A DNA stretch of 64,000 nucleotides, from the IMG/VR virus record IMGVR_UViG_2974594660_000001, positions 1-64,000 of that record; one strand, 5' to 3'. Source of the stretch: a virus (taxonomy: Duplodnaviria; Heunggongvirae; Uroviricota; Caudoviricetes). Under the pieces are notes generated by a model. The model saw only the letters and a list, made by a program, of their open reading frames with translations, was not told where the DNA came from and did not search any database. Below, piece by piece: positions 2,441-42,709 of the stretch. Each line of letters starts with the position of its first letter. The stretch's first letter is position 1. The translations under genes were made by a program, and so were the position numbers.

Positions 2441-2884
2441 TTACTTACGTTTGTACTCAACCCAATCACCAGACTCTACCAGTGTAGGTTGTTCTTCATC
2501 AATATGATAAATCCAAGCATCTAATCGATCACCGTTATCTAATTCAATTTCAATAATTGATCGATTATAGAAGTTTTGGGGACTATCTTTTTCATAGAAA
2601 CCCTCTAATGCATCGTAAGCACCCTCCATACCACTAATAGGTGCCTCGAATACATCAACAACAACTTGTTTATCATTATCATTATGGACTAATGACACAC
2701 TCGGGAAGTATGAACTTGCATAAGCATACAGGTTGAATTTATCAACAGTCTTACCAGTTCCTACATGAACCCCTTCACCACGTGCATTTACTCGGAAGTT
2801 TTCCATTCCTAATCGTAATGAACCGTAAGTTGCGATGAATACGTTGCCTTCTTGTGGAGCTAATTTTGCATTACTTTTTGACAT
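2441..2884 (-). CDS. gamma-glutamyl cyclotransferase-like (AIG2/GGCT fold) protein
   Basis: N-terminal FIATYGSLRLG matches the YGSL motif of GGCT/AIG2-like enzymes. The size is about right for the family. Confidence 0.45.
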   Translation of the reverse strand: MSKSNAKLAPQEGNVFIATYGSLRLGMENFRVNARGEGVHVGTGKTVDKFNLYAYASSYFPSVSLVHNDNDKQVVVDVFEAPISGMEGAYDALEGFYEKDSPQNFYNRSIIEIELDNGDRLDAWIYHIDEEQPTLVESGDWVEYKRK

Positions 2885-9102: not shown

Positions 9103-9340
9103 CTTCTTGCTCTTGTAAATACATAGCCACTAGACGTTCATTTTGTTCAGATTTTTGTTTATTTTTATATAAACGTTTCTGAACTTTAATTATGTGCTCA
9201 ACATCAGGTGTTACAGTTATCTTTGGAACTTTACCCTCAAAAGAAAGCCCCTTAAAAGGGGCAATCAGGTAACAAAAAATGGCTGCTTCACTATTAGTTG
9301 ACAACTGTACATCTTCGCCGTTAGTTAGTTTGTAATTCAC
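9059..9340 (-). CDS. hypothetical protein
   Basis: 93 aa ORF overlapping its neighbours. Confidence 0.3.
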   Translation of the reverse strand: MNYKLTNGEDVQLSTNSEAAIFCYLIAPFKGLSFEGKVPKITVTPDVEHIIKVQKRLYKNKQKSEQNERLVAMYLQEQEDAFGNAWINDDIPF

Positions 9341-11186
9341 CTAAAAGATCTCCAACTGTACAATCAGTTAAATCAACAGGGATTTCCCAAGCTACGATTT
9401 CAAAGTGTCTGAACTCTGATTTATAAACACCGACAGAGTTTTCTCCATTGACTGACAATAAGTAAATACCATTATTGGTTAATCCAGAAGATAATCGTTC
9501 AGCCTCAGCTAATTGTCTAGCTCTTTCAGCCTCAGCCTCTAATCGAATACGCTCTTCTTCTGCACGTAATCTTTCTGCTTCAGCCCTTGCTTCTTCTGCG
9601 AAAGTATTGATATTACTTTCGGTTACTCCGACTATTAAATCTGAGACATAGCTGTACATATCAGAGCCATGAACCAGATTATATAAACCTCTACCATTTA
9701 TGGTACTAATCTTCATGATGGTTCCGGAGTTTGCCATTTCAGACATTGCAAATGTTAAACCAATTCTTCTCTGGCTTTCGCTTCGGTTAAGACTATTAGG
9801 ACTAATGAAAACATTACTTCCAACTATTGGTACTGATAAATCTAGTAAACCTGAATCATAAACACTAGTTGGATCAATAATACCTAGATCATGCTCAACT
9901 CCAGAACTCACCCAACCTGTTGCTGGAAGTCTGGTTGATGAAATTTTATCATTTCGTAGTGGCTTGTTGACAATATACTTAACACCATTAACTTCGTATA
10001 CTGATCCTATTCGTAAACCATAAACATTAACTTGTTCTTGTGTTAATGTCCTTGGTGCAACAAAAGATTCGACATCATTTTTATTTATAAGGACGCGATG
10101 CATACTATGTACTACATCACCTCTATGGTTGTATACACAAATAACCAAGTGTTCATTGTCACTTACACCCATTACTAAACCAATGTTTTGGCATAAAGGC
10201 CTAGCATCTACTTCACCATAAGTGTGTGGTTTTATTCGTACGAAACGTCCTGACCAGTTTTCATCTGTTAATGGTAAGTTTTCTGGAGTTTCAGCTTCTG
10301 TCTCGTTGATTTCATCAACTAGCTCTTGCAAATCAACAGAAACACCCTCTGGGCTATCACCGTTCTTTACACGAATAATGTTGTTACAGAATGTTTCCAG
10401 ATTTGTTCCTGTCATTCCGGGGGCTGTATTGACTTCTAAGACCCAGCAATTATCCATTCTGGTGATAACATCAACAGCTCCGTAATCAAGCCCTAAAGCA
10501 CTTACAGACTGAACTGCTGCAACCTTTGCACTATCGATTACATCAGCGTTTTGGGTAGCATAAATCCAACCTGTGTGATAGTTTCGTACAACATTGCTGT
10601 ACTCTTCCATCTCACGATACCCATCACGGCGGCGTTTTTGTTGTACATAAGTAACAACACCATTCATGACATGGATTCGGAATTCACGACGTTGTTCTGT
10701 TAAACCTTTTGTGTACAGGTTTGCATTAACCAAAGATGTGCTTGTTTCAACAGAAGATCCAATATCAGCCAATTGTGATAAAAGATTTTCGTTAGCACAT
10801 ACAACAATACCAGCACCAGAGTGACCTTGCAATTGAGTACGAGCATAAACAACTGAGCCATTATCCATCCATTGTTGTGCTTCTTCACGATCAGTTGTAC
10901 TTTCAACAATTGGAATATTGTTTTCACGGAGAATATTCATTGCTGTTCGTTTGTTTGAAGCGTTAGAAATGGCTTGAGGGTGGTTTAAAATTCTTGCACT
11001 ACCAATAATACTTTCTGGCAAAGAAGAAGAACCATAGTTAACAATCAAATCACCTCTGCGACCTCGGAAAGTTGATCCAGTTGATCGTATTTTAATAATA
11101 CGCTGATCTTCCATTCCATTGATTTGTTCACGGATTAAGTTTACTGTATCGGATGGTGCATGAGAGAAAATTGCTAATCTTGACAT
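9321..11186 (-). CDS. ATP-grasp amidoligase (RimK-like N-terminal half) fused to an uncharacterised C-terminal domain with an Ala/Glu/Arg-rich coiled coil
   Basis: Motifs GHSGAGIVVC, REFRIHVMNGVV and WVLEVNTAPGM (the ATP-grasp E-x-N...PG signature). The C-terminal 300 aa includes AEEARAEAERLRAEEERIRLEAEAERARQLAEAERL. Confidence 0.6.
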   Translation of the reverse strand: MSRLAIFSHAPSDTVNLIREQINGMEDQRIIKIRSTGSTFRGRRGDLIVNYGSSSLPESIIGSARILNHPQAISNASNKRTAMNILRENNIPIVESTTDREEAQQWMDNGSVVYARTQLQGHSGAGIVVCANENLLSQLADIGSSVETSTSLVNANLYTKGLTEQRREFRIHVMNGVVTYVQQKRRRDGYREMEEYSNVVRNYHTGWIYATQNADVIDSAKVAAVQSVSALGLDYGAVDVITRMDNCWVLEVNTAPGMTGTNLETFCNNIIRVKNGDSPEGVSVDLQELVDEINETEAETPENLPLTDENWSGRFVRIKPHTYGEVDARPLCQNIGLVMGVSDNEHLVICVYNHRGDVVHSMHRVLINKNDVESFVAPRTLTQEQVNVYGLRIGSVYEVNGVKYIVNKPLRNDKISSTRLPATGWVSSGVEHDLGIIDPTSVYDSGLLDLSVPIVGSNVFISPNSLNRSESQRRIGLTFAMSEMANSGTIMKISTINGRGLYNLVHGSDMYSYVSDLIVGVTESNINTFAEEARAEAERLRAEEERIRLEAEAERARQLAEAERLSSGLTNNGIYLLSVNGENSVGVYKSEFRHFEIVAWEIPVDLTDCTVGDLLGELQTN

Positions 11187-11187
11187 T

Positions 11188-11421
11188 TTATTTACCTTTA
11201 GTTTGGAGTTTTAGTTCGCTTTCTTTTCTTGATAATCGAATTGTGATCTTGTTAATACTTTCCTCTAGATTTACATACCGATTCATTGCGGCTTCAAATT
11301 CAAGAGGTGTTTTTGCATTTATAACTTCTTTGTACACATAGAATTGGGAGAATAATCTCCCTTCTAATAAACGCTTTAAAGTATTAATATCTCGTTTTAA
11401 CAACTTGCTTTGAGAAACCAT
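11188..11421 (-). CDS. hypothetical small protein
   Basis: 77 aa ORF. Confidence 0.3.
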   Translation of the reverse strand: MVSQSKLLKRDINTLKRLLEGRLFSQFYVYKEVINAKTPLEFEAAMNRYVNLEESINKITIRLSRKESELKLQTKGK

Positions 11422-11642
11422 TATGGTTTAATACCTTTTAAATGACAGTACTCGTTAAGCATCATGTAGATACTAACAGGGAAAGGAATAATTACATCCT
11501 CTCCTTTCTTTTCTTTATACACCTTAACTTGGTATTCACGCACAGCCCTGAGGAGATCACTCCCGTGATCCGTCATTGGCATTTTACGGACTACGACTGG
11601 CTTGTCAAGACGCAATACTTTTGCTTCTTTCATTTCTTCCAT
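11421..11642 (-). CDS. hypothetical small protein
   Basis: 73 aa ORF. Confidence 0.3.
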   Translation of the reverse strand: MEEMKEAKVLRLDKPVVVRKMPMTDHGSDLLRAVREYQVKVYKEKKGEDVIIPFPVSIYMMLNEYCHLKGIKP

Positions 11643-11643
11643 T

Positions 11644-13446
11644 TTAAACTACTCCTTGACAATTAGGACAAATTGGCTTCTGACCTTGGAACGATGTTAG
11701 TGGTGCTTCACTCCAAGGGATCCTGTGAAAACAAGAGCTACACTCATTCATCTTTTCCCAATTACTTTTAGAAACCTTGAAACCATTTCTAAGGGTTTTA
11801 CGAAAAGCTGTGTCACCACCTGTTTGGTTTGATTTGAAGACTTTTTCACACTCTTTGCAACAGGATACATCTGTTGTTGACATTTCTGATGGCTCAAATT
11901 CTTTTGCACAAAATCGGCAAACTTCTTTCTCGACCACCTTATTATCTAAATGTGTACCCATAACTTCAGTATAACACTCATCACAACAGAAAGCAACATC
12001 ATGTACAATAATTGTTTCTGGTACGTCTTCAAAATCAATAGGTGAACTACAATTTGCACAAGTCTGCATATCACCCTTACGAATCCACTGCTGTTCCGTG
12101 AAAGTCTCACCTGTCACAGTAGTAAGCTCCTGTGTTGGTGTATCTTCAGATAGACTATCAATGACTTCTTCAATTGTGTCATCCACGTACTCTGGGATAC
12201 TTGTTAATTTTTTATTTAAATCAACTAGAATTGCAGAAGCATCCATTCGGACTACATCATTAGGATTTTTTAAATCCTTAACCATGATATGAACACAGTG
12301 GTTCATAAAGTAAGCAGATGTGATTTCAGCAGAGTAAGATTTCTCTCTCTCAACTTCTTCAGGACGAATACCGTGGCATTGAATTTCGATATACTCATCT
12401 TCATTATTGATCCAACCAATTAATTGTGCTCTGTCAGAATTTCTTCCGTATGGTCGGATGTCTAATGCTTCGAAGATAATACGATCACCAATCTTCTTGT
12501 TAGGAAGTACAGATTTGATAATCGCATTTACACCAGCATGTGGGTCTTTATTATTTACTTTGTTCGGAAAAGATTTTTTACTATAGTTGCCATAGTTATA
12601 AAGGTTGTCATCATCATAACTCCGGTTCCAGTATGAGTACTTGGGAAAGGTAGGAAGCGTATGCTTCTTTTCCTCCTTTAATGTCATGTTAGTGGCATCA
12701 AAGATATACTGAACACCAACTTCACATTCAAAGTGGCGTTTTACTGTTGGAGAATACTTCTTGCGATTAAGAATCCACATCAACATTTCTTCTTCAGAGG
12801 CACCATACCATTCACCAGTATTAGTCTCTGCTAAATGGAAAGGGCGTTCTTCATTTCGTAGAATGTTTAATGTTTTTTCATTATCATCAAACCACACTAA
12901 TGTGAACGCACCATCCAATTTCTGAACTGTTTCATCGATTCCAATTTTTGCAATAGAGTGACAGATGTTTTCACTATCTACTTCAAAATCTTTACTATCT
13001 GGCAATAAACCTTGGTCAATTAATGTTCCATTATGAACAAGAGTGATATGCCCATGTGTAAATGGATGAGCATTTTTTGCATTAATAGCACCTTGTGTTG
13101 CATAACGGTTATGACCAACCATAATGCTTGGGCGTACTGTTGATTTAGTATATGTTTTACCAGTTGAAGTTACAGTGTACTCTTCACGTTCACTGACCTC
13201 TTTGAACAATGGGGAGCGGGAGAATTGATCACCTGGGATTGCTTCTTTAGCCCAGATTAAATCCATCTCTTTTCCATCTTTAAAGACAGAATAAACACCA
13301 GTAGAATGTTCTCCTCGGAAAGTATCACAGAATAATAATTTCTGGAATACTCCAACTTCATTTGCAGTTAAAGTAGTTTTTGTCCCAGCTAGTACAATAC
13401 CACACATATTTAATAATCCTTGTTTTACATTTAATTTTAAACACAA
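11644..13446 (-). CDS. class-II (Ntn) glutamine amidotransferase fused to a C-terminal multi-CxxC zinc-ribbon region
   Basis: Starts MCGIV, with the catalytic Cys directly after Met as in Ntn GATases. The C-terminal about 170 aa carries six or more CxxC pairs (CANCSS, CCDECY, CRFCAKEF, CCKECEK, CSSCFH, CPNC). Confidence 0.7.
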   Translation of the reverse strand: MCLKLNVKQGLLNMCGIVLAGTKTTLTANEVGVFQKLLFCDTFRGEHSTGVYSVFKDGKEMDLIWAKEAIPGDQFSRSPLFKEVSEREEYTVTSTGKTYTKSTVRPSIMVGHNRYATQGAINAKNAHPFTHGHITLVHNGTLIDQGLLPDSKDFEVDSENICHSIAKIGIDETVQKLDGAFTLVWFDDNEKTLNILRNEERPFHLAETNTGEWYGASEEEMLMWILNRKKYSPTVKRHFECEVGVQYIFDATNMTLKEEKKHTLPTFPKYSYWNRSYDDDNLYNYGNYSKKSFPNKVNNKDPHAGVNAIIKSVLPNKKIGDRIIFEALDIRPYGRNSDRAQLIGWINNEDEYIEIQCHGIRPEEVEREKSYSAEITSAYFMNHCVHIMVKDLKNPNDVVRMDASAILVDLNKKLTSIPEYVDDTIEEVIDSLSEDTPTQELTTVTGETFTEQQWIRKGDMQTCANCSSPIDFEDVPETIIVHDVAFCCDECYTEVMGTHLDNKVVEKEVCRFCAKEFEPSEMSTTDVSCCKECEKVFKSNQTGGDTAFRKTLRNGFKVSKSNWEKMNECSSCFHRIPWSEAPLTSFQGQKPICPNCQGVV

Positions 13447-13477
13447 TTTAAGCCCCTGTTTCTAGGGGGCTTTTACT
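13447..13477. terminator. GC hairpin between two genes; possible terminator of ambiguous strand
   Basis: AGCCCCT-GTTTCT-AGGGGGCT with T-rich flanks. Confidence 0.3.
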
Positions 13478-15052
13478 TTAAATAGTACGTCGCCAGTTTA
13501 GATATTCTTGTAGAACATCCGGATCTCGGAAGAACCAACCAGGCTCAAACGTAGACTCTAATGAGTTCATAACAGTCTGGATTTTATTTACCCAAGAGAA
13601 AGTAGGCAATAATGGCTTACTATCAGGTAGTCGATACTCGGTTCTGGTAGAAAGGACGTTACGTGTATGATCCCAACCAGCTGTGTGATAGGAGCCACGT
13701 GTCATGTTATAAACTCTATCCCCTTGGACTGATGTTTCTTCTGGGATTAAAGTTGTAATAGTTCTGCGTCGAATTTTACTACGAGACAGAATATCATTAC
13801 ATAACTTATAACCAATGCTAAGGTCTTTCGAGAAATCTGGACACTTCTTAGGTAAACCTTTACGGATTACTTTCTCAATAGGTGTACTATTAAGCATTTC
13901 TAAGAACTCTTCGTCAGTCCCCTCAAAACCCTTAGCAACCTCTTTAAGAGATAAGAATCTATTTACCAGTCGAATAAGACGACCTTTACGCCATTTGGCT
14001 TCAGAGATACGGAATTCAATTGAACCAAAAGAAGACATTGGACAAAGGTTCATTGCTGTATACTTATTCCAGTTAACAACAATGTGTGATAAGAAGTTTT
14101 CTTTATTCCAATTATCAGATAAGATATCAATATATTCCTGAGCAAAACCTAAAGCCACACAGAAGTTATTACGATATCGGTGGAAACCAGAGCAACGGAA
14201 TAAAGGACGTTCATAGAATAAATAAGCCAGAATCATCTTCTTGACTTCTTCTTCTGTCATATCACGTACATCGACATGAACATGAGTTGAACAACGCCAT
14301 GTTTCATCTGGTGTGTTATTGAAAAGGAATGAATCGATTTCAATAGCAGCGTTATATAAATCTCGACCTCCCCAAGGAGATGAGCAAACATATTCGATAC
14401 CACCATTACGGAGTGAACCATCTTCTTTCGAAGACCAATACTGGAATCGTGGATGAGAAACTTCACCTAGGTTTTCTAGTTCAATTTCTACACCCGCTAA
14501 ATTAGTACCTACAATCAAAGGATGACTTTCAATTGTTGGATAACTAGCTCTCATTCCAAAAGTGCTAGCAACTGTTGGCATTGTTATAACCTCTGTGTTT
14601 CCTGAAATTGGTTGATTTGGAATTGTTCTTCTTGCTCTTGGTATATTAAAACCAAAAAGACCACTTTGATAATGTTCTGATCTGAATGAATCAGGTTCTT
14701 CATTCTCTTGATCTTCAGGTGTCCCATACCACTCATCAACAATAGCCTCATCTTGTGATGATTCTTCTACTGGAACCTCAATATCGATAGAGTCTTCAAT
14801 AACCTGAGAACTCACATCCTCAACAGATCGTGTTGTCATTCTGCTGACCAACTCATCCCAGTTTATAGGACTTGGAGAAGCATAAATCATAGATGAAATA
14901 TCATGATCAGTTGTTCTCTGATTACTGGAGGTTGGTTCAGGGTGAGGTTCAGTTCTTCTTTGGGTATAAGAAGGGGCAGTGCTCCTGTTTGTCATTGCCC
15001 GTGTTGATGAGTTATTATTAGACCACCTTATTCCTCGATAACTACCTGGCAT
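13478..15052 (-). CDS. GCS2/YbdK-like carboxylate-amine ligase domain with a long acidic, Ser/Thr-rich N-terminal extension
   Basis: GVEIELENL and CSTHVHVDV resemble the GIELE and HVHVG motifs of gamma-glutamyl-cysteine-ligase-2 family amidoligases. The N-terminal 200 aa is low-complexity. Confidence 0.5.
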   Translation of the reverse strand: MPGSYRGIRWSNNNSSTRAMTNRSTAPSYTQRRTEPHPEPTSSNQRTTDHDISSMIYASPSPINWDELVSRMTTRSVEDVSSQVIEDSIDIEVPVEESSQDEAIVDEWYGTPEDQENEEPDSFRSEHYQSGLFGFNIPRARRTIPNQPISGNTEVITMPTVASTFGMRASYPTIESHPLIVGTNLAGVEIELENLGEVSHPRFQYWSSKEDGSLRNGGIEYVCSSPWGGRDLYNAAIEIDSFLFNNTPDETWRCSTHVHVDVRDMTEEEVKKMILAYLFYERPLFRCSGFHRYRNNFCVALGFAQEYIDILSDNWNKENFLSHIVVNWNKYTAMNLCPMSSFGSIEFRISEAKWRKGRLIRLVNRFLSLKEVAKGFEGTDEEFLEMLNSTPIEKVIRKGLPKKCPDFSKDLSIGYKLCNDILSRSKIRRRTITTLIPEETSVQGDRVYNMTRGSYHTAGWDHTRNVLSTRTEYRLPDSKPLLPTFSWVNKIQTVMNSLESTFEPGWFFRDPDVLQEYLNWRRTI

Positions 15053-15627
15053 TCTGGAAATCCTTCATTTAAATAAGGGATAAGATATCTTGCTTCGCTG
15101 AAGATTGTGATGGTTTCACCATCTTTTGTTCCAATCTTAGCACCTTTATAATCGATATCACCATTATCACGTTTAAAGAATACCTCATTGACGATTCTCT
15201 CATCTGTCTGAGGTTGATAAAAAGCATACATAAATCGATGACTAAAAGTAGGATAACCTCTTAGTTTACGATCATTGATACCTTTCTTGGTTGAACGGCA
15301 TGATGAATAAGTAATCCAATATGGCGTGTTATTATAAACCGTGTAATGTGAATCAGGTGGATCAAGAACAAGGTTTTCCGAAGTCATCGGGACTTGTGTA
15401 GAATGTTGTCGCCCATCAGATGTTATACGATATCCAGTGAACACTAAAGCATTTTCTGCTTCAACACTGAATTCCATATCACGTCGTTCAGATCTTGACA
15501 TGTTGTCAAAATCAAGAATGGAATCATCATTGTAGACACTTTCAACATAAAAGGGGACTAGCCCCTCATCTGTTTTTAGTCCAACGTATGTTCCACTATA
15601 ATACATATTGAAATCATCGGCTAACAT
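15028..15627 (-). CDS. hypothetical protein
   Basis: 199 aa ORF inside the amidoligase cluster. Confidence 0.4.
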   Translation of the reverse strand: MLADDFNMYYSGTYVGLKTDEGLVPFYVESVYNDDSILDFDNMSRSERRDMEFSVEAENALVFTGYRITSDGRQHSTQVPMTSENLVLDPPDSHYTVYNNTPYWITYSSCRSTKKGINDRKLRGYPTFSHRFMYAFYQPQTDERIVNEVFFKRDNGDIDYKGAKIGTKDGETITIFSEARYLIPYLNEGFPECQVVIEE

Positions 15628-15630
15628 GTT

Positions 15631-16437
15631 TTACATTACCTTTAATAATTTAATCAATGCTTCTGCTGAACGTTTATCATTTTCATTAATGACACGCTGG
15701 ATTTCTTTTGGGTCAACCTTTGCCACTAGCTCTTTAAATGAGCCCTCTTTAAGGGCACCAAAAGCTTTATGAGATTGATCCCAAGCCCATTTTCGATTCT
15801 CTTCTTTAGCAATCCAGAAGTTCGACAATGTGCGGTATTCGATACCATATGTTTTATAGCGACATGCACCAGCTTTACCATATAGTTCACGACGACGATC
15901 ATCGTTATCTAATAACAAGGATGGTACACCTAAGAAGAAGTCACACATAACACCCAGAATGCTCTGATTCATTTGTGTTACATCTAATTCACCCTCAAAA
16001 CCAATGTGGATATGCCCACCAGCTGTACGAAGACCTGGATCAGCTGCTTTAGGTTTTGGGTTTCGTGTACCAGTTAAGGCATTATAATCTGGCTCACAAC
16101 CAAAGATAAATGCGCTTTTATGGAAACTAGTCAGTTCTGCTTGAGAGAAGATATGAGAACTCACGCCCTCGGCAATTGACATGCCAATTTTATTTGCTTC
16201 CGTGTAACAAGCAGAAATGCCACGAGCCATGTTATCATTGAAACCAGCCCATGTTTCATGTGGGTTGATATCATATTCAATTAGCACGTTATCTTCCTGA
16301 ATACGCACATCTTCAGACAAATGCTTTTTCTCTTCTTTACTGGCACCAAGTCGTCCAGCGAAAGATCCGATTAAACCTGTTTTAATATCAAAACCTAGTA
16401 ACTCTGGATCAGAACCGATAGTTAATTTAAAGCTCAT
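15631..16437 (-). CDS. putative amidoligase (carboxylate-amine ligase-like)
   Basis: IGSDPELLGFD and GGHIHIGFEGE resemble amidoligase and GCS2-type motifs. It is co-clustered with ATP-grasp and GAT-II genes. Confidence 0.45.
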   Translation of the reverse strand: MSFKLTIGSDPELLGFDIKTGLIGSFAGRLGASKEEKKHLSEDVRIQEDNVLIEYDINPHETWAGFNDNMARGISACYTEANKIGMSIAEGVSSHIFSQAELTSFHKSAFIFGCEPDYNALTGTRNPKPKAADPGLRTAGGHIHIGFEGELDVTQMNQSILGVMCDFFLGVPSLLLDNDDRRRELYGKAGACRYKTYGIEYRTLSNFWIAKEENRKWAWDQSHKAFGALKEGSFKELVAKVDPKEIQRVINENDKRSAEALIKLLKVM

Positions 16438-16449
16438 TTTATTTACCTT

Positions 16450-17382
16450 TTAAGCGAATGGGTTAATATTGTTTTCAACCAGAAATGTTTCCATTTCAAC
16501 AACCAGTTTAGGGATTTGGAACCCTCTGTGATTTACGGTAACAACTTCTTCCGTTCCATCACGTCTATGATCCCCAGTAACACTTGGATCAGAGAGGAAA
16601 TGTGTATCGTTCTCAACACTTAGACAATCGATTAACTTTCTTCCACGACCATTGAAACGCGATAATCGTCTACCAAATCCATCATCTCTACGATAATATC
16701 CTTGGTTTTTCCATTCTTCCTGTACGAAACAGTCATCTTGGAAATCACCTGACATCATTCTTATTAAAGATCTTTTACCAAATGAGGCAGGACTTACCCA
16801 GTTCGTTTCACCTACCCATTGTACTGAGTAAGATCTTGAAAAAGCACCAACATTGCTGTGGAGTAGATGGGCAACGATAGCAGAAAAAGATGGTCTATAA
16901 CCCCAACCAATCATGTCGGTGTACATTCTGGATATAGTACTACCAGTGGTTAGGTTTCTTGCCAAGAATAAACCAGTTATGATCTTATCTGCTTTGTTAT
17001 CTTTAATGTGGGCACGAACAACTTTCAAGATAGGGTGTACCGAAATGCACCCATTGTATATTTTAAGATCATCGAAAATAGCTTGAAGATGTTTTATAAC
17101 ACTCTTTTCAGCTCTTTCCCTTTTATTTAAAGAAGTCATTTCTTCTTCTGTTATGAAGTTGAAATTACCAACATTGTTCTCCCAAATACTTGGGTTATTA
17201 ATGTTAGCACTTATAGAAAATTCAATAAAAGAATGAAGATTCTTATTATCATTTCCTACAATAACTCCTGGGTGACGTTGATCTCTTACACCACCCCATC
17301 CAGATGATGCCATTTTACCAAAGCATGGGGCACTTGGTACATGCCCCTTTACCCCAGTCTTCAATGCTACGCTATATTCCAT
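16450..17382 (-). CDS. hypothetical protein
   Basis: 310 aa ORF. Confidence 0.4.
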   Translation of the reverse strand: MEYSVALKTGVKGHVPSAPCFGKMASSGWGGVRDQRHPGVIVGNDNKNLHSFIEFSISANINNPSIWENNVGNFNFITEEEMTSLNKRERAEKSVIKHLQAIFDDLKIYNGCISVHPILKVVRAHIKDNKADKIITGLFLARNLTTGSTISRMYTDMIGWGYRPSFSAIVAHLLHSNVGAFSRSYSVQWVGETNWVSPASFGKRSLIRMMSGDFQDDCFVQEEWKNQGYYRRDDGFGRRLSRFNGRGRKLIDCLSVENDTHFLSDPSVTGDHRRDGTEEVVTVNHRGFQIPKLVVEMETFLVENNINPFA

Positions 17383-18311
17383 TTTTTATACTCCTCGTAA
17401 ATGGTTTTAGCTAAGTCTAAGAAGATTTCAATGGTGATTTGTTTTGATGAGATCTCATTTGGAATTAATAAGTCCCCATTCATTTCATCACTGAGGAATG
17501 TGTGAGTTAATGTTAAACTCTCTTTGTTTCGATCAAATTGACCTGCATCACCGCCATCATAGTGACCAAATCGACCATAACCGTTTTCAGTATCGCCCCA
17601 ATCGCCCTGATAGATTTGTTTAAAATCACCAGTACACATGTTCTTGAAATCTTCCAAAGTGGCATCGTAGTGTGGAAGAATAGTTGAGTCGTAATCAACA
17701 ATATTCAAGTATGTGTTGCCAGAGTAATCTGTACACATATAAAACATCTGAGATATCATGAATGAGAAGTGCCAATCAAACCCTTCATCAGTTAACATTT
17801 TAAACACCCGACCAATGTCAGTATCATTTAAAATATTTCGGATCATCATAGCTGGCAATAATGTCTTCTGCATATTCAAACCTTTAGTTTTTATTTCAAA
17901 ACCATAGACTTTCATCATTGCAGATTCATTATCGATATGATACTCTTCTTCTTCATAATCAGGGACAACATATTCACCAAAGGTGATATGATCAAACATC
18001 CCATTACTCATTGGATTTTTAAGAACCTTATCAGTTAACTGTTTAAGGAATTCTTCTGAATCCATATCCCCACGAACTTGTTTGAATATGTATTTTTCTG
18101 ATGAGAATCGATCACTTGGGTAGTAAATAACGCTTTCAAGATTGCTTGAAGAGATATTATCAAGTGGTACATCTTCCCAGTCTTCATTTTCAACAACACA
18201 GTCTAAATCAGACAGCATACCAAAGCATGGGACGTCTTCTCGGAACATCCAGCCGTTCTCACCTACTAATGTTAGATACATCTTATTCCTCTGTTTCTTC
18301 ACCAATACCAC
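17367..18311 (-). CDS. hypothetical acidic protein
   Basis: 314 aa ORF. Confidence 0.4.
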   Translation of the reverse strand: MVLVKKQRNKMYLTLVGENGWMFREDVPCFGMLSDLDCVVENEDWEDVPLDNISSSNLESVIYYPSDRFSSEKYIFKQVRGDMDSEEFLKQLTDKVLKNPMSNGMFDHITFGEYVVPDYEEEEYHIDNESAMMKVYGFEIKTKGLNMQKTLLPAMMIRNILNDTDIGRVFKMLTDEGFDWHFSFMISQMFYMCTDYSGNTYLNIVDYDSTILPHYDATLEDFKNMCTGDFKQIYQGDWGDTENGYGRFGHYDGGDAGQFDRNKESLTLTHTFLSDEMNGDLLIPNEISSKQITIEIFLDLAKTIYEEYKKWNIA

Positions 18312-18552
18312 GAAGTTGATTTACATACACTTGCTTACCATCTTTTCCAGTAACAGTGCATTGTCCAGTTAAAACTCGGAAAGTTGTATCTCGGCTTAGG
18401 TCGTATTGGGCCAGAACACAGTCTTTAAACTGTATGCCTCTGAAGTAACCGAGAGTAATAACTAGTACCAAGAAAATAAGAAGCGCTAGATAACGCTTCT
18501 TGAAATATTTCTTTGATATTTGATTGTACTTGTCTTTAACAGTAATAATCAT
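18283..18552 (-). CDS. small membrane protein
   Basis: One predicted TM helix (LALLIFLVLVITLGYF). Confidence 0.35.
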   Translation of the reverse strand: MIITVKDKYNQISKKYFKKRYLALLIFLVLVITLGYFRGIQFKDCVLAQYDLSRDTTFRVLTGQCTVTGKDGKQVYVNQLRGIGEETEE

Positions 18553-22855: not shown

Positions 22856-23983
22856 TTATCCTTTTACATTAACAACAGGTTTAATATAGTGTAAAACTTC
22901 TACAAGATCTTCTTGAAGTCTCATAACATCAAAAATATCTTTGTAGGCAAAAGGTGATTCATCTATCGTTGATTCACCAACAGTAGCACCTGGGATATCT
23001 TTCATAGACTCTTTAAAGGATTCTAGTGTTACCTCTTTCTTAGCCTTAGAACGACTCATAACACGACCAGCACCATGAGAGGAGCTGTTCATGCTTTCTG
23101 GATTACCTTTACCACGAACAATGAAACAACCATCACGCATATTTCCAGGAATAACTCCCATCATTCCTTCATCAGCATGTGTTGCTCCTTTTCGGTGAAT
23201 CCATAAATTATCTTTGAATTCAGCATGGTTATGGTTCCTATTAATAATAGAATTACCATCCATAGTGAACCCATTAACAGAGCATACACGCTGTGCAATA
23301 TATTCACGATTCGCCAGTGCAAACTGAAGACCATATTCTAAATCTAGGATATAATCTCTGCCCTCTTCAGAAGTCTCTAATAGATGGCATGCACTTTCAG
23401 CTTTCCCATCATCTCCAGAAGCCATTTTCATATAGAGAGATGCAATTCCATGACCAATAGAACGACTACCAGAGTGGATAGTCAACCAAACTTGATCTTC
23501 TTCATCATATCCAATTTCAATGAAATGATTTCCTCCACCAAGAGTTCCAATACAATTTGGAGCATGACCAAGGATATCATTAATTCTGCTGGAGTGCTTA
23601 GGTAGTAATTTTTGAGATAACCACTTACTTGCTTCTTGAAGATTTTCATTTTTAGAGAAACCTACAGGAACCACTGAAAATATTTTATCTCTGATAGTTT
23701 CAGCATTATTAATTAATTCTTCTTTTGTTACACCAAGAAGTTTTACAGAGAACATACCACATCCAATATCGTATCCAACAAATGATGGGTATATTGTCCC
23801 AGCTGTTGAGACAACTGCACCAATTGGAAGTACATATCCAGAGTGGGCGTCAGGCATTAATGCACCTTGGACTACATCAGGAAGTGACATAACATTAACA
23901 AATTGATCTATTGCACCTGATTCTAAATACTCTGCATAAATTTTATAAGGTTTATTTAATTCTTCTAGTTTTTTAAGTTTCAT
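22856..23983 (-). CDS. rtcB: RtcB-family RNA 3'-phosphate ligase
   Basis: MPDAHSGYVLPIG, GGGNHFIEIG, HSGSRSIGH and NHNHAEF match the conserved RtcB metal-binding and active-site motifs. Confidence 0.8.
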   Translation of the reverse strand: MKLKKLEELNKPYKIYAEYLESGAIDQFVNVMSLPDVVQGALMPDAHSGYVLPIGAVVSTAGTIYPSFVGYDIGCGMFSVKLLGVTKEELINNAETIRDKIFSVVPVGFSKNENLQEASKWLSQKLLPKHSSRINDILGHAPNCIGTLGGGNHFIEIGYDEEDQVWLTIHSGSRSIGHGIASLYMKMASGDDGKAESACHLLETSEEGRDYILDLEYGLQFALANREYIAQRVCSVNGFTMDGNSIINRNHNHAEFKDNLWIHRKGATHADEGMMGVIPGNMRDGCFIVRGKGNPESMNSSSHGAGRVMSRSKAKKEVTLESFKESMKDIPGATVGESTIDESPFAYKDIFDVMRLQEDLVEVLHYIKPVVNVKG

Positions 23984-24195: not shown

Positions 24196-24425
24196 CTTAT
24201 CACCAGTACTGTTGTCTTCACTTTTTCTACATGTGTATTCGTTGGGTGGAACATTGCTAATCTATTTTCAGATAAGTTAACTGAATTGATATTATCTTCT
24301 ACAACGTCCTTTATTTTTAAATAAATATTACCTTTAAACTGAAAAGTATCACCAAAATTTAAATCACAAAACTTTACAAACTTCCGACCTTTCTCAGTTA
24401 TTTCAATATTCATTTTAGACCTCAT
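24192..24425 (-). CDS. hypothetical small protein, tandem paralog
   Basis: See 23983..24195. Confidence 0.35.
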   Translation of the reverse strand: MRSKMNIEITEKGRKFVKFCDLNFGDTFQFKGNIYLKIKDVVEDNINSVNLSENRLAMFHPTNTHVEKVKTTVLVIR

Positions 24426-24699
24426 AAAAAGAGTTTGAGATTATAATTTCAACAGATTCTAATCTTTGGAAATAATCATGGCTCCAGAAGTTTGCTACTG
24501 GTTGAACCGAGCCATCATCTAATTCAACATCAATAGTACTATCCCTATGGCTTGAATTAACAACAGCGTCAAAAGCTTTCTTAGCTTTACTGAAATCTGA
24601 CCACACATAAGGTAGTGTATCATAGTCTTTATATGTGTTGAAAGAGTTTCCATCTTCGTAACACACTTTTACTTCAAACTTTGGTATTATGTCACTCAT
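24415..24699 (-). CDS. hypothetical protein
   Basis: 94 aa ORF. Confidence 0.35.
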   Translation of the reverse strand: MSDIIPKFEVKVCYEDGNSFNTYKDYDTLPYVWSDFSKAKKAFDAVVNSSHRDSTIDVELDDGSVQPVANFWSHDYFQRLESVEIIISNSFYEV

Positions 24700-24967: not shown

Positions 24968-25093
24968 AATAACTCACTTTGTTTGTGGAGAATGGTGGAT
25001 TCCAACCACCCACCCCACCTTGGGTAGCGAACTATCGGATGTTTGATAGACATACGCCCAAGGTAGAGTTGCCGCATGCATCCCCATAGAATT

Positions 25094-25168
25094 GGCACCC
25101 TGTACAGGATTCGAACCTGTGACCTACGATTTAGAAGATCGTTGCTCTCTCCACTGAGCTAACAAGGT
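25094..25168 (-). tRNA. tRNA-Arg (anticodon TCT)
   Basis: Cloverleaf read off the minus strand: acceptor ACCTTGT/ACAGGGT, T-arm ACAGGTTCGAATCCTGT, anticodon loop CTTCTAA, and encoded CCA. Confidence 0.75.
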
Positions 25169-25175
25169 TAATTGG

Positions 25176-25249
25176 TGGCCCTTGCTGGACTTGAACCAGC
25201 GACCAATCAGTTATGAGCTGATCGCTCTAACCATCTGAGCTAAAGGGCC
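25176..25249 (-). tRNA. tRNA-Met or tRNA-Ile2 (anticodon CAT)
   Basis: GGCCCTTTAGCTCAGATGG... with anticodon loop CTCATAA, T-arm TGGTTCAAGTCCAGC, and encoded CCA. Confidence 0.75.
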
Positions 25250-26261: not shown

Positions 26262-26276
26262 ATTATACCTTTTATC

Positions 26277-26348
26277 GCTCCGTGTAGGAATCGAACCTAC
26301 AACTATCTCTTAGGAGGAGATTATTATATCCATTTAACTAACAGAGCA
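26277..26348 (-). tRNA. tRNA-Arg (anticodon CCT), no encoded CCA
   Basis: GCTCTGT acceptor, anticodon arm ATCTC-CTCCTAA-GAGAT, T-arm GTAGGTTCGATTCCTAC. Confidence 0.6.
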
Positions 26349-27230: not shown

Positions 27231-28880
27231 TTAAATATAGAGCTTTAAATTATTTTTAATACGAGATTCAATCTCAGACCAATCAGTTGTTGTTACTTCA
27301 CCATCCTTAAAAATGGTTAACAGTGAAGTGTTCTCTTCTTCTTCAACTGTTGCTTTGTCCTTGAATTTCAGGACTCCATCTTCATAGTAATGGTAAATGA
27401 GACCAGTTAATGATTTCTTACCAGGATCAGTAATTGGATCTTTCATTACTTCACGTGCTTCACCATTAACAACACCGTATGTTGCTTTGATTGCAAAACC
27501 AAAGGTATCACGGGTAATGTACTGATATGTGAATGCACCTACACCAAATACTACCGCAGACGATGCATATCCTTTATCATGTAAACGTTCCATGATTTCA
27601 TTAGCACGCTGTTTAGTGATTGAATCACCATAAAGAACGCCAACATGTGGATCAAGAACTTTGAAACCTTTTGAGTTTACAGAGTGACCAAAGATTTCAT
27701 CAAGTAACTGAACAACACCCTTCATTTCTGGAGTTAGTTTATCAATTTGAGACCATTTGAAATCAAATCCAACATCTTTATCTTCTAAATAAGATGCAAT
27801 ATATTTCTTCCCATTGATGGTTTCAATAATGAAATCGGTAATTTCTCGATCATAACGCTGACATAAAATATCATGAACATCATCAACAGTGTGATAATCA
27901 AGTTTTGTAACGTTACAGCAAATAACTGGCAAACCGCAAAGAATATCAGCTGGATCACCTGAATCAGGACGTGTTACCACTTTACCATCTCTGGAAAGAA
28001 TGACATCTTTTAACTCACGTAAGATATTATCAACATGGTTCCATGTATCCCAAGTATCATTTACGATTGATACAATACCTGTTGGCGTTGTTTCTGTGAT
28101 AAGACGACGAACAGTATCAAGTTCACCATCTTTCATCCCCATGCACATTACAGAGTGTTCTGTTGCATCTACCGAACCACCACGTTCTGTTTTGTAAACG
28201 TGCTCAAACATCTCACGACCAAAAACAGAATCAGTACCTTGGAACACAGATAAATGAGCCATGCCAGCAATTGCTGATGCATAGATACCATAGTCACCAC
28301 GACTACTGAAATCATGACCTTGCCAATCAACATGTGAGTTATCATCACAATTTCGAATTGCCCATTGTTCACAGAGTAATCGGAAATGGAATGCTGTTGT
28401 TGCAGAAGTGATGATAGGCCACATCTCTGCACTGATTAAGGTTTCAAGATAATTAACAAGCCAGAAGAAATCTGGATGAGTATTCTTGATGGTTAACATT
28501 GGTGTTCCAACATCAACAACCTCACCCTCTGGAACAACTTTAATTTCCAGTGGCAGATACCCAAGTTTATGAAGCGCCTTAATTCGACTTATATCGTAAT
28601 CTTTACCTAAGTAACGATCAACAGAACGTTTCATTTCTTCGCAGATGCTTTCATCTTTTTGGAAGAATTCAGAATCAAATTCTTCTTTAATCCAATTAAC
28701 AACAAAAGCTTGGAAGCCAAAGCTGAGGATTTTTGGATCATCAGTTACTTGTCTTTCTGAAAAACGTCTTGCATTACGTGGAACAAAGTTGCCATAAATA
28801 AGGCTTGTACCCTCTGGGTATTGATTTGCATGGGCTAGTTTATAACCATCAATTGCAAAAATAGGAGAAAGTCTTTTCAT
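27231..28880 (-). CDS. nadV: nicotinamide phosphoribosyltransferase (NAMPT/NadV)
   Basis: 549 aa. N-terminal AIDGYKLAHANQYPEGT and the overall length and motif pattern are typical of NAMPT-family type II PRTases. Confidence 0.8.
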   Translation of the reverse strand: MKRLSPIFAIDGYKLAHANQYPEGTSLIYGNFVPRNARRFSERQVTDDPKILSFGFQAFVVNWIKEEFDSEFFQKDESICEEMKRSVDRYLGKDYDISRIKALHKLGYLPLEIKVVPEGEVVDVGTPMLTIKNTHPDFFWLVNYLETLISAEMWPIITSATTAFHFRLLCEQWAIRNCDDNSHVDWQGHDFSSRGDYGIYASAIAGMAHLSVFQGTDSVFGREMFEHVYKTERGGSVDATEHSVMCMGMKDGELDTVRRLITETTPTGIVSIVNDTWDTWNHVDNILRELKDVILSRDGKVVTRPDSGDPADILCGLPVICCNVTKLDYHTVDDVHDILCQRYDREITDFIIETINGKKYIASYLEDKDVGFDFKWSQIDKLTPEMKGVVQLLDEIFGHSVNSKGFKVLDPHVGVLYGDSITKQRANEIMERLHDKGYASSAVVFGVGAFTYQYITRDTFGFAIKATYGVVNGEAREVMKDPITDPGKKSLTGLIYHYYEDGVLKFKDKATVEEEENTSLLTIFKDGEVTTTDWSEIESRIKNNLKLYI

Positions 28881-29672: not shown

Positions 29673-30473
29673 CTACTTACTCCAATCATAAACAGCATGA
29701 ACATGATCAATAACACCATCAAAAACTTCTTTACCTTTTGAAAAGATACCGTTTGTAACAAACAGTGATATTGACTCAGGATTACCTTTTTCTCTTAAAG
29801 CTTTGGCGACTTCAATAAAGGTTCGACCGCCATCACAGATATCATCAACAATGATTAAATTAGCGTCACAGTAGTCAAGAGAAGTATTAACCTCTACGCC
29901 TGTAATCTCACCAGTTGATGTATCACGAATCTTGCTTGCATGTATTACAGGCTTATTATAGATTTTTGATAACTCATGAATCTTTTTATCAGCCCCTGCA
30001 TCGGGTGATACAAAAATTGTTTTACCTTTAAACATCTCGCCGATTGGAAGAGCGTGTCTGTGTTGCATAAATACTTGAGATTGCGTAATTACACTGGATT
30101 TATTAATAAGTGCAGGGGCAACATCAGAGTGTGGATCAATTAGTATAACTTCATCTGCATTCATTGAGTTCACAATGTTTGCAAACACTTTTAAAGAGAA
30201 ACACTCTTTCTTAGATGTTACTCGATCTTGTCTGGCAAATGGCAAGTATTCAAAGATAATTCTTAGGCTACCATTTCTAACCTGCATTCGACTGACAACA
30301 TCATGAATTAATAGCATATCAATTACTTCATCAGAGGATCGCAAGGAGCAAATGATTTCTACATCAATTACAGATACAGGAGGTGTAGATAAGAGTTTAG
30401 CGTGACGTTCACCACCATTGAATGAGAATAAATCAAACTCTTGAGGTATACCATTCATTGTTACATGAATCAT
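29673..30473 (-). CDS. prs: ribose-phosphate pyrophosphokinase (PRPP synthetase)-like
   Basis: PRPP-binding loop LIIVDDICDGGRTF. It lies beside NAMPT, whose substrate is PRPP. Confidence 0.7.
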   Translation of the reverse strand: MIHVTMNGIPQEFDLFSFNGGERHAKLLSTPPVSVIDVEIICSLRSSDEVIDMLLIHDVVSRMQVRNGSLRIIFEYLPFARQDRVTSKKECFSLKVFANIVNSMNADEVILIDPHSDVAPALINKSSVITQSQVFMQHRHALPIGEMFKGKTIFVSPDAGADKKIHELSKIYNKPVIHASKIRDTSTGEITGVEVNTSLDYCDANLIIVDDICDGGRTFIEVAKALREKGNPESISLFVTNGIFSKGKEVFDGVIDHVHAVYDWSK

Positions 30474-30787
30474 TCTAAATCCTCCACATATTTTTTATAC
30501 CACTTATCAACCTTTTTACTGATTGAATCTTCCAGTAAAGAGATGAAGTTTTCTTTAGTAATGAACCCTTTGCTACGAGCATAAAGAAAAGCGCAATCAA
30601 CAGAAGAAATAATAATGTCAGCAGTTTCATTGGCTACATTCTCCATTGGTTCACTGTATAAAACAGCAGATTGAAGTTCTCCTGATTCTTCTCCAACCTT
30701 TAATGCTACATCTTTTGGATCTCTTGCCAGACCAGCAACAAATGATGTATCTAATATTTTATTTAGAGATTCCATACTTATCTTCAT
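30470..30787 (-). CDS. MazG-like nucleoside triphosphate pyrophosphohydrolase
   Basis: VGEESGELQSAV is an EExxE metal-binding helix. Size is about 100 aa. Confidence 0.5.
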   Translation of the reverse strand: MKISMESLNKILDTSFVAGLARDPKDVALKVGEESGELQSAVLYSEPMENVANETADIIISSVDCAFLYARSKGFITKENFISLLEDSISKKVDKWYKKYVEDLE

Positions 30788-31111: not shown

Positions 31112-31678
31112 TTATCGACCAATTTTTGTGCAATTTGGCATATCTTTTAATCCAATCTTAACCTCTGGGATTAAATCAACTGCCAGTTTTAAGAAGCTTA
31201 CTGGTACTCTATCACATGATGGTCGATCTCTGTTTATCTTAACCAATTCATCAAACTGTTTTTCAAATAGTTTGTAGCAGAACTGCATACCATAGTAATC
31301 AGCTAGAATTTTCCACTCACTGATCGTTTTGAGGTTAAAGTTAGTATTACAGATAATGATTTCTTTTATCTGTTTTTGTTTGGACAAGGAGATGACTTGT
31401 GCTTCCATCATACTCTTCATAAGAGCTAATGTTTCTTTGTCATTTAATTTGGAAAAGAATTCTTTCTTATCCATATCACCAAACAAAGTAGTACGCAAAT
31501 TATCTAAACTAACAACTGCAACTTTTCCAATGTTATCTTTACAACGCTTATTAGTCCAAGTTGTTTTACCTGCACCAGCAGATCCAATTGTTAAAATAAG
31601 TTTAATCATTTTTAATATCCCAATAACAGTAAACTGCACTGCCAATAATACATACAGATAAGAATAAGACATGACCAA
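31112..31678 (-). CDS. P-loop kinase (AAA_33/polynucleotide-kinase-like or nucleotide kinase)
   Basis: Walker A GSAGAGKTTW near the N-terminus. Confidence 0.45.
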   Translation of the reverse strand: MVMSYSYLYVLLAVQFTVIGILKMIKLILTIGSAGAGKTTWTNKRCKDNIGKVAVVSLDNLRTTLFGDMDKKEFFSKLNDKETLALMKSMMEAQVISLSKQKQIKEIIICNTNFNLKTISEWKILADYYGMQFCYKLFEKQFDELVKINRDRPSCDRVPVSFLKLAVDLIPEVKIGLKDMPNCTKIGR

Positions 31679-40690: not shown

Positions 40691-40978
40691 CTACACTAAC
40701 AACTTAATGGAAATTCTAAACCCATCTTGTTTAAAGGGAATCACTATCTTTTTCCCTTGCTTACCATTGTATAACTTTTTAACCTTGCCTGTCAATAGCT
40801 GATTTAATCTTGTACCGCCAGCCATTAATGACAAAGGATAGTTTATATTGATATACGCTTGTAAATGATTTAAAGATTTAAACTTCTTATTGAGATAATT
40901 GCCGTTCTCATTAAGAACTCTTTCATCTAATAAACGATATTCAATAACGTCTACTCTTTTTGGCTTGTCTTTTCTCAT
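40691..40978 (-). CDS. hypothetical basic protein, first gene of the leftward arm
   Basis: 95 aa ORF next to the control region. Confidence 0.35.
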   Translation of the reverse strand: MRKDKPKRVDVIEYRLLDERVLNENGNYLNKKFKSLNHLQAYININYPLSLMAGGTRLNQLLTGKVKKLYNGKQGKKIVIPFKQDGFRISIKLLV

Positions 40979-42326: not shown

Positions 42327-42709
42327 TGTTTCAACTATTTATTTTATTTCCAGTGTAAGGCGTAAGCTTTTAAGAAAAAGTGTACTAACGTACATGTGAC
42401 TATAAGAAATAACCTCTTAGGAATAATACTCTTATAATCTTTCTCTGAATTAAGAGAGATTAGAAATTTATTAACCTCTTAATTCTTTTTCTATTAACTC
42501 TTCCTTACTTTCATTGCTTCCTTTATGACCTCCCATCTAGCAGTGTCTATATGACATCCCATCAATCTTTACCTTCCTTTCTTCAGAGTAAAATAAATTT
42601 ATTTGTAATGATTTCTTTTATCAGAGACTAGAATAGGTTGAAGAGCTTCCAAGGTTTGTATCAGAGGGAAGTAGCGGAGGTGGAGGGAAATGTTTTAAGG
42701 AGTGATGTA

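Follow-up and report, generated by a model that had tools for sequence, protein, structure and literature searches.

An amidoligase gene cluster in Cronobacter phage vB_CsaP_009: relation to a known phage cassette and a candidate gamma-glutamyl chemistry

Phages of the genera Kuravirus (phiEco32, NJ01) and Bruynoghevirus (PaP3, LUZ24, tf) and of the Zobellviridae (RIO-1, PA11, CW02) carry an amidoligase cassette. Iyer et al. reportedly predicted it before others, in 2009, and it is said to have been labeled a "putative peptidoglycan modification module" by Hardies in 2013 and Duhaime in 2017. Here we analyze a gene cluster on one arm of a window of 64,000 nucleotides (the whole stretch of DNA under study, from IMG/VR record IMGVR_UViG_2974594660_000001), which holds the same families in the same order: two members of an orphan family (A/B; ORF21 and ORF20), a COOH-NH2 ligase (L2; ORF19), a second orphan family (D; ORF18), an Amidoligase_2 protein (L1; ORF17), a class-II glutamine amidotransferase (GAT-II, or G2; ORF16), the small protein DUF7195 (ORF15), an ATP-grasp ligase (AG; ORF13), and a gamma-glutamyl cyclotransferase (GGCT; ORF04). 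The cluster is almost certainly the Privateervirus copy of the known cassette.

RIO-1, phiEco32, 7-11, PA11, tf, LUZ24, PaP3, and CW02 share a conserved "peptidoglycan modification cassette" of seven genes (PMC5498523). A possible role in altering the cell wall and keeping out superinfecting phages has been suggested for it (PMC10580990), and in 2025 it was still termed a putative module (PMC11945000). The genome paper of phage Privateer only mentions an amidotransferase homolog. The cassette is thus not new: it has long been described, and the copy studied here stands in a public annotated genome, so that the original prediction, made from the DNA alone, overstated its novelty.

The cassette in vB_CsaP_009

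Over its 8,991 bases, the cluster matches Cronobacter phage vB_CsaP_009 (LC519601/NC_048664; 92,122 bp; Grimontviridae, Privateervirus) at 100% identity. The window corresponds to the first 64 kb of this genome, and window and record coordinates coincide. Identity of the cluster region to the Proteus phages YP1, J3S, Privateer, P59, and 3H10_20 is 84-96%. All cluster open reading frames (ORFs) lie on the minus strand within ~9 kb, as originally read, and agree gene for gene with RefSeq NC_048664.1 (Table 1). The cluster was first taken to end at 18311, but the RefSeq start of ORF21 is 18281. The cassette genes are packed at -25 to +16 nt, with the 70-nt gap between ORF17 and ORF16 as the single exception. 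We observed no clean T-run after the hairpin in this gap on the coding (minus) strand; the gap at the same junction measures 55-420 nt in relatives.

Like the known cassette, the one in the window lies upstream of the primase/helicase gene (here in fragments, one at 988-2022 and the other at the distal end of the record). It is placed amid replication and nucleotide-metabolism genes, on the strand opposite to the structural genes. No transmembrane-like segment was found in any of the nine cassette proteins, which are predicted to be soluble and cytoplasmic. Unlike the known cassette, the window has its GGCT gene ~6.4 kb away, a 320-residue tail on the ATP-grasp ligase, zinc ribbons on the GAT-II, and an acidic N-terminal extension of 157 residues on L1. 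These three extensions are confined to close relatives; apart from them and the GGCT distance, the vB_CsaP_009 instance itself adds little to what is known of the cassette.

Table 1. Coordinates of the cassette genes and of the intergenic hairpin in the window
Feature	Coordinates	Strand	Description
ORF21	17367..18281	-	304 aa; A/B family paralog 1; phrog_24882
ORF20	16450..17382	-	310 aa; A/B family paralog 2; 16-nt overlap with ORF21; phrog_19161
ORF19	15631..16437	-	268 aa; phiEco32-type COOH-NH2 ligase type 2 (L2); PF14395, phrog_3815
ORF18	15028..15627	-	199 aa; D family; 3' end overlaps ORF17 start by 25 nt; phrog_4877
ORF17	13478..15052	-	524 aa; predicted Amidoligase_2 (L1) at residues 158-524 + 157-aa acidic N-terminal extension
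GC-rich hairpin	13450..13472	not assigned	8-bp stem, in the 70-nt ORF17/ORF16 gap
ORF16	11644..13407	-	587 aa; class-II (Ntn) glutamine amidotransferase (G2) + three C-terminal zinc ribbons
ORF15	11421..11642	-	73 aa; DUF7195 small protein; PF23825
ORF14	11188..11421	-	77 aa; small protein confined to close relatives
ORF13	9321..11186	-	621 aa; RimK-like ATP-grasp ligase (AG), residues 1-300, + 320-aa tail
ORF04	2441..2884	-	147 aa; AIG2/GGACT-like gamma-glutamyl(amine) cyclotransferase (predicted); detached last cassette gene

Enzyme and orphan families

The cassette encodes three predicted ATP-dependent carboxylate-amine ligases with intact catalytic motifs, two of them resembling glutamine synthetase (GS) and gamma-glutamylcysteine synthetase (GCS) (ORF19 and ORF17) and one a RimK-like ATP-grasp enzyme (ORF13). 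ORF19 passes the cut-off of PF14395 COOH-NH2_lig (34.7 bits versus 25), matches phrog_3815 at 8e-104, and is 50% identical to gp102 of NJ01 and 45% to orf48 of PaP3; its residues D10, E12, Q47, D49, E54, H142, H144, E200, and R202 are invariant across 12 lineages. Although ORF17 itself scores only 19 bits with PF12224 Amidoligase_2, under the cut-off of 22, we assign it with good reason to this family, because it matches phrog_7469 "amidoligase" at 2e-83 (and phrog_38711 at 9e-144), because eight of eight aligned ORF17 orthologs match PF12224 (best 1.6e-12), and because the expected motifs are present. The GVEIELE and HVHV motifs on which attention had first been drawn to the ligases map to ORF17 at residues 187 and 257, followed by IEFR at 345, and the patterns G-x-E-x-E-x-E, H-x-H, and E-F-R are invariant among the aligned L1 proteins. 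The acidic N terminus ascribed to one ligase also exists in ORF17, but it is 157 residues long rather than 200; it is low in complexity (pI 4.5) and lineage-specific, the extension being detected in one other locus only.

Both proteins had been described as GCS2/YbdK-like. They are indeed two distinct ligases, with kinship at the superfamily level through PF12224 and PF14395, but neither matched the GCS2 profile (PF04107) at E<=0.1. Searches by sequence and by profile returned no solved relative of either. Since an hhalign comparison of L1 with L2 was also negative, their placement in a common superfamily rests on the Pfam family definitions and the shared motifs.

ORF13 matches the RimK ATP-grasp family PF08443 over residues 76-263 (E=4e-8; 33.5 bits versus a cut-off of 21), and its nearest solved relatives are the RimK structures 5zct and 4iwx (E=3e-4). 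The metal motif D-x(11)-E-x-N is kept at residue 250 ("VDV...LEVN"). Residues 1-300 find their best Pfam, NCBIfam, and PDB relatives in the RimK family, which includes MptN and CofF, but the scores are far under the family cut-offs: 51 bits versus 143.4 for TIGR00768 rimK_fam and 25.7 versus 331 for the S6 ligase equivalog NF007764. With such scores, the protein's RefSeq label, "ribosomal protein S6 glutaminyl transferase," is over-specific and unsupported. ORF13 also gives weak matches to D-Ala-D-Ala ligases (PF07478, E=0.0011, under the cut-off; NF002378, 26 bits versus 243). The gene had been read as an ATP-grasp ligase fused to a coiled-coil domain of 300 residues; the ligase part stands, but in the 320-residue tail, which is lineage-specific (five loci only), just ~35 residues (531-566) are coiled-coil-like.

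The amidotransferase was originally called as an N-terminal nucleophile (Ntn) class-II enzyme beginning with MCGIV and bearing a zinc ribbon, and all of this is borne out. The true start of ORF16 is at 13407, which yields the M-C-G-I-V N terminus; the protein matches GATase_6 (PF13522; E=1.8e-15, 57.5 bits versus a cut-off of 27), and Cys2, the Arg of "HNRYAT," and the Asn-Gly of "VHNG" align with those of GlmS (1xff). A class-II domain (~1-240) is followed by a middle domain of no assigned family (~240-470) and by a zinc-ribbon region (450-583) with three CxxC...CxxC pairs; the middle domain and the zinc region are each found in 18 loci only. Profile searches of ORF16 and nine orthologs detected no SIS, synthase, or phosphoribosyltransferase domain, so that ORF16 shows no recognizable acceptor domain, and it scores 43.5 bits with NF001484 (cut-off 381), which makes the RefSeq name "L-glutamine-D-fructose-6-phosphate aminotransferase" (GlmS) over-specific. 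A weak match to EgtC was also recorded (TIGR03442; E=0.0034, 16.7 bits versus 219). In phage NJ01, the corresponding ORF (14001-16111) aligns with ORF16 only from residue 129, without the N-terminal Cys, and a 420-nt unannotated gap lies upstream; the NJ01 gene may be split or interrupted, or the annotation or sequence may be in error.

ORF04 was first noticed as a GGCT-like gene further down the same arm, and matches PF06094 (E=1.4e-14, 55.1 bits versus 22.8). With its Y20-G-S-L motif and a catalytic-type Glu (E94, in "ALEGF"; LEG) intact, it is a predicted gamma-glutamyl(amine) cyclotransferase. In the window, an inserted block that includes ribonucleotide reductase genes separates it from the rest of the cassette. 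The GGCT gene nevertheless belongs to the unit, because it is the immediate neighbor of the ATP-grasp gene in PaP3 and in most other lineages (it is close in NJ01, CW02, and BUCT695). The ATP-grasp, GAT-II, carboxylate-amine ligase, and GGCT assignments are thus all supported by profile searches.

Three further uncharacterized proteins had been counted in the cluster. ORF18, ORF20, and ORF21 answer to this description, but the cluster also holds two small ORFs, ORF14 and ORF15. ORF18, ORF20, and ORF21 match only PHROGs without assigned function; profile searches with the ORF18 and A/B families gave no credible Pfam or PDB match, and hhalign comparisons of both with every other cassette family were all negative. 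The conserved residues of ORF18 are R111, G116, and G166, and its family sits between L2 and L1 in 82 of the 91 phage loci described below. ORF21 conserves C20 (the invariant Cys, part of a CFG motif close to the N terminus), R142, Q221, and G229-Y230-x-R232. ORF20 and ORF21 are distant paralogs, with a BLASTP E-value of 0.18, yet their iterative hidden Markov model (HMM) profiles retrieve each other's orthologs. When 1.84 billion proteins were searched in full by HMMER with the A/B profile, only 54 cluster representatives were returned, all single-domain, and no informative domain fusion. We considered whether A/B might be a hidden thiol hydrolase or Ntn relative; hhalign comparisons with peptidase C26 and with GAT-II were negative.

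The structure predictions that had been suggested as a check were run for ORF18 and ORF20 and were uninformative. AlphaFold2 (AF2) models had low confidence (mean predicted local distance difference test, pLDDT, of 51 and 45.5, respectively), and Foldseek found nothing significant for them in the PDB (best E=1.7 and 0.12, TM <0.25). This failure is attributable to the shallow alignments behind the models: the word-indexed homolog search for the orphan proteins gave 2, 7, and 22 matches, even when seeded with alignments. Tudor/PWWP-like small-barrel matches for ORF18 were weak, came from a poor model, and are not to be trusted.

ORF15 matches PF23825 (DUF7195) at 1.3e-36, and DUF7195 directly follows GAT-II in 25 loci of enterobacterial and Pseudomonas phages. 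Its alignment shows a conserved "R-K/R-x-P-M/F-T/S" strand and then two helix-like segments, a pattern suggestive of a ribbon-helix-helix regulator. A ubiquitin-, Pup-, or LysW-like carrier was sought among the small proteins, and DUF7195 has no conserved C-terminal tail. ORF14 has no Pfam or PHROG match and was found in one locus only. Abutting the start of ORF21, ORF22 (18283-18552) encodes a small protein that contains a single stretch of strong hydrophobicity (KD19 2.36) and is conserved in close relatives only.

Conservation of the cassette and alternation of C26 and GGCT

Homologs of ORF19 were found in 308 phage records and 544 IMG/VR contigs. We compared 11 annotated phage loci and 80 IMG/VR loci, in which ORFs were assigned to families by iterative HMMs that started from window sequences (E<1e-5). 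L2 is present in all 91 of 91 loci, L1 in 89, GAT-II in 88, and the ATP-grasp ligase and the ORF18 family in 82 each, followed by GGCT (52), A/B (37-39), a Peptidase-C26 class-I amidotransferase-like protein (hereafter C26; 36), and DUF7195 (25); many of the absences reflect contig ends. The near-constant core therefore consists of five genes: L2, L1, the ORF18 family, GAT-II, and ATP-grasp. Beyond single lineages, no other recurrent neighbor was detected in the 91 loci.

In an extended set of 126 loci, 102 of which hold all of L2, L1, G2, and AG, two gene orders dominate: AB-L2-D-L1-G2-(s)-AG-GG and C26-L2-D-L1-G2-AG-primase/helicase. The window shares the order AB-AB-L2-D-L1-G2-s-AG with Kuravirus, Grimontviridae, and Lahexavirus loci, and synteny extends over Kuravirus, Bruynoghevirus, Grimontviridae, Lahexavirus, Zobellviridae, and metagenomic phages. 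Given the same genes in the same order in more than 100 independent phage loci, the arrangement is far beyond chance. Such synteny across many phage lineages shows that the cassette genes form one functional unit, and the original interpretation of the cluster stands.

Outside phages, the cassette is essentially absent. Only 35 loci encode L2 in a set of 185,579 species genomes, almost all of them on contigs of metagenome-assembled genomes (MAGs); many of these contigs are the size of a phage genome, and they carry the same cassette, in many cases together with a phage primase/helicase.

The slot upstream of L2 is occupied by either the A/B family or C26, which co-occur in none of the 102 complete loci. 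Among the same loci, GGCT is present in 46 of the 52 without C26 versus nine of the 50 with it. It accompanies A/B in 32 of 36 loci, and it is also found in 14 of the 16 with neither A/B nor C26. The four A/B loci seemingly devoid of GGCT belong to Grimontviridae, where the gene lies beyond the fetched flank, as in the window. The C26 proteins keep a full Cys-His-Glu triad (GxCRGxQ...QxHPE). Together with the alternation, this suggests that two chemically different enzymes predicted to cut gamma-glutamyl amides tend to replace each other, with A/B traveling alongside GGCT, although this is a correlation and not a proof. The Pfam entry for PF12224 reportedly notes the same choice of neighbors for Amidoligase_2 in bacteria, either a GATase-like thiol peptidase or an AIG2 cyclotransferase.

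Candidate chemistry, alternatives and neighboring genes

We tentatively propose that the cassette assembles amides in the cytoplasm by way of a transient gamma-glutamyl handle on a small acceptor. One GS-like ligase would attach a gamma-glutamyl group to an amine of a small acceptor that most bacteria share, and the second GS-like ligase and the ATP-grasp enzyme, with glutamate as its likely donor, would add further amide bonds, up to three in all. ORF16 would either provide glutamine-derived ammonia for amidating an activated carboxylate or act as an EgtC-like gamma-glutamyl amidohydrolase, glutamine then being a model for its substrate. Finally, removal of the handle by GGCT (as 5-oxoproline) or by C26 (as glutamate) would free the amide product. 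Cleavage of the gamma-glutamyl bond is thus predicted to fall in the window to GGCT, along with the Cys-bearing ORF20/21, and in other lineages to C26 in their place. The acceptor should be nearly universal, because the cassette is found on phage contigs associated with very diverse bacteria; we rank a small molecule, which could include a cell-wall precursor, above a protein.

That the gamma-glutamyl group would be installed and then removed is suggested by the alternation of C26 and GGCT in combination with three precedents. In putrescine use by E. coli, PuuA, a GS-like gamma-glutamylputrescine synthetase, acts together with PuuD, a hydrolase of the peptidase C26 family. The Zobellviridae-type cassettes recall this add-then-remove logic, with a GS-like ligase and a C26 Cys-His-Glu hydrolase, a likeness at the superfamily level; they differ from it in having a second GS-like ligase, an ATP-grasp enzyme, a GAT-II, and orphan proteins, and the window has GGCT and A/B rather than C26. 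In butirosin synthesis, the ATP-grasp ligase BtrJ adds a protective gamma-glutamyl group, which the GGCT/AIG2-like BtrG removes as 5-oxoproline. The cassette would pair an ATP-grasp ligase with an AIG2-family cyclotransferase in a similar way, but it has no acyl carrier protein, pyridoxal phosphate-dependent decarboxylase, or acyltransferase. Ergothioneine synthesis, in turn, uses the GCS2 ligase EgtA and EgtC, a class-II GATase-like gamma-glutamyl hydrolase. This parallels a GCS-like ligase with an Ntn class-II protein that has no synthase domain, although the match of ORF16 to EgtC is weak and the cassette has no equivalents of EgtB, EgtD, or EgtE.

Several observations weigh against the proposed handle. 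Lineage is a confounder of the alternation of C26 and GGCT (Zobellviridae-like phages on one side, enterobacterial and Pseudomonas phages on the other), and nine loci have both. The family calls come from self-built iterative HMMs, which may drift or miss divergent members; indeed, orf49/50 of PaP3 are positional equivalents of A/B that the HMMs did not detect. The large lineage-specific appendages (the zinc ribbons of GAT-II, the acidic tail of L1, and ATP-grasp tails of 100-450 residues) look more like modules for binding macromolecules than like parts of a small-molecule pathway. With the roles of ORF18 and ORF20/21 unassigned, the key step may also be quite different. Full-text literature searches yielded predictions only, and no experimental product, target, substrate, or phenotype for any copy of the cassette, in agreement with what had been said of such clusters at the outset.

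The appendages lead to the best-surviving alternative, in which glutamate or short peptides would be attached to a phage or host protein, with ORF18 or ORF20/21 as target or adaptor and GGCT or C26 as eraser or trimmer. RimK modifies ribosomal protein S6 and PafA attaches Pup, and Iyer et al. are said to have raised peptide tags for related systems in 2009. RimK is the closest solved relative of ORF13, and GS-like ligases include the Pup ligase. Moreover, zinc ribbons, a coiled coil, and an acidic disordered tail suggest macromolecular partners, and the conserved ORF18, which does not look enzymatic, lies between two ligase genes and overlaps ORF17 by 25 nt. However, the appendages are absent from the minimal Zobellviridae cassettes, whose ATP-grasp protein has ~250 residues, and ORF13 is far under the RimK-family cut-offs (51 versus 143 and 25.7 versus 331 bits). 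No acidic or Gly-Gly C terminus is conserved, those of DUF7195, ORF18, and A/B being variable, and enzymes of the GGCT family are known to act on free gamma-glutamyl amines, not on protein-bound tags. Overall, we consider tagging of a protein unlikely.

We are more skeptical still of a modification of peptidoglycan precursors, in which the ligases would remodel murein precursors in the cytoplasm or build unusual peptide linkages on them, with amidation by GAT-II, and the altered cell surface would block superinfection. This reading is the small-acceptor model with one particular acceptor specified. Murein stem peptides do contain a gamma-D-Glu link and undergo glutamine-dependent amidations, and the weak, sub-cut-off D-Ala-D-Ala ligase matches of ORF13 (PF07478, NF002378) point in the same direction. 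On the other hand, the conserved core contains no Mur-ligase fold, racemase, membrane, or exported protein, and GGCT requires a gamma-glutamyl group with a free alpha-amino group, which murein stem peptides do not expose. The contigs carrying the cassette are binned with Proteobacteria, Bacteroidota, Firmicutes, Actinobacteria, Cyanobacteria, Saccharibacteria, and one Altiarchaeales MAG, whose walls are very different, although this is a hint only, as MAG binning of phage contigs is unreliable. Passages of PMC5498523, PMC6256558, PMC10580990, and PMC11945000 relay the proposal, which goes back to Iyer et al. (2009) and Hardies et al. (2013), and the papers found report no experimental test of it.

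Hypermodification of DNA or nucleotides, with the ligases and the amidotransferase decorating a base or its precursor so as to evade restriction, is very improbable. The cassette lies beside primase/helicase and polymerase genes in nearly all lineages, and amidoligase and amidotransferase genes without an assigned role have been noted in metagenomic thymidine-hypermodification clusters (Lee et al. 2021; PMC8989533), but no enabling family recurs around the cassette in the 91 loci. The annotation of the 92-kb genome lists in this respect only a DNA methyltransferase and a dCTP deaminase, and no dUMP/dCMP hydroxymethylase, 5-hydroxymethyluracil (5-hmU) DNA kinase, aGPT-pyrophosphorylase, TET/JBP, or DpdA, a result at the level of annotation, as no HMM scan of every ORF for these was made.

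Equally hard to credit is that these are auxiliary metabolic genes with no dedicated product, which would recycle gamma-glutamyl compounds of the host (glutathione, glutamine, polyamine conjugates) into nucleotides: the region has been termed "host material recycling genes" (PMC5498523), neighbors of the cassette in the window include ribonucleotide reductase, NAD-salvage, and nucleotide genes, and GAT-II, GGCT, and C26 each release glutamate or 5-oxoproline, but catabolism needs no three ATP-consuming ligases, the strictly kept order of five genes and the two orphan families speak for a pathway of its own, and L2 is nearly absent from cellular genomes, so that these are not borrowed host metabolic genes. 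PADLOC defense models gave no matches.

Returning to the transient gamma-glutamyl handle, a role outside peptidoglycan is possible, if doubtful: a phage-specific amide or peptide metabolite, or a tag, could be made via such an intermediate, with the orphan families performing catalytic or templating steps without precedent. If this is true, the target of the product would be one that nearly all bacteria have in common, for instance in host takeover, counter-defense, or exclusion of competitors, and the cassette would rank among the most widespread phage pathways of unknown chemistry (>500 viral contigs, >300 isolated phages). Among its carriers are phages of interest for therapy that infect E. 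coli, Pseudomonas, Proteus, Cronobacter, Salmonella, Vibrio, and Aeromonas. Fifteen years have passed since the cassette was predicted, and database labels such as "S6 glutaminyl transferase" and "GlmS" mislead. Establishing its product would assign a function to seven to nine genes per phage, two orphan families included, and could reveal a new phage metabolite or modification. The comparative pattern, with a five-gene core, C26 alternating with GGCT and A/B, and restriction to phages, narrows the chemistry to be considered.

Other features of the window were recorded alongside. A nicotinamide phosphoribosyltransferase gene (27231-28880) is followed by a ribose-phosphate pyrophosphokinase-like gene (29673-30473) and a MazG-like gene (30470-30775); the phosphoribosyltransferase/pyrophosphokinase pair also accompanies the cassette in phages A24, SeKF_80, and LAh_9, and resembles the NAD+ reconstitution pairs with which phages are reported to counter NAD-depleting defenses. 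An RNA-repair set consists of an RtcB ligase (22856-23983), a short RNA-ligase-like ORF (24415-24699), and a polynucleotide kinase/phosphatase (31112-31609), with tRNA-Arg(TCT), tRNA-Met(CAT), and tRNA-Arg(CCT) beside it (25093-25249 and 26275-26348). Between the primase/helicase fragments ORF02 (988-2022) and ORF140 (at the far end of the record) lies an HNH endonuclease gene (376-867), and the replicative primase/helicase appears to be split around the record ends and this gene. At ~41000-43300 the coding strand switches, together with a change of sign in GC skew. This region includes ~1.7 kb without annotated genes (40978-42710) and a tRNA-Trp (43134-43207) just upstream of the terminase gene.

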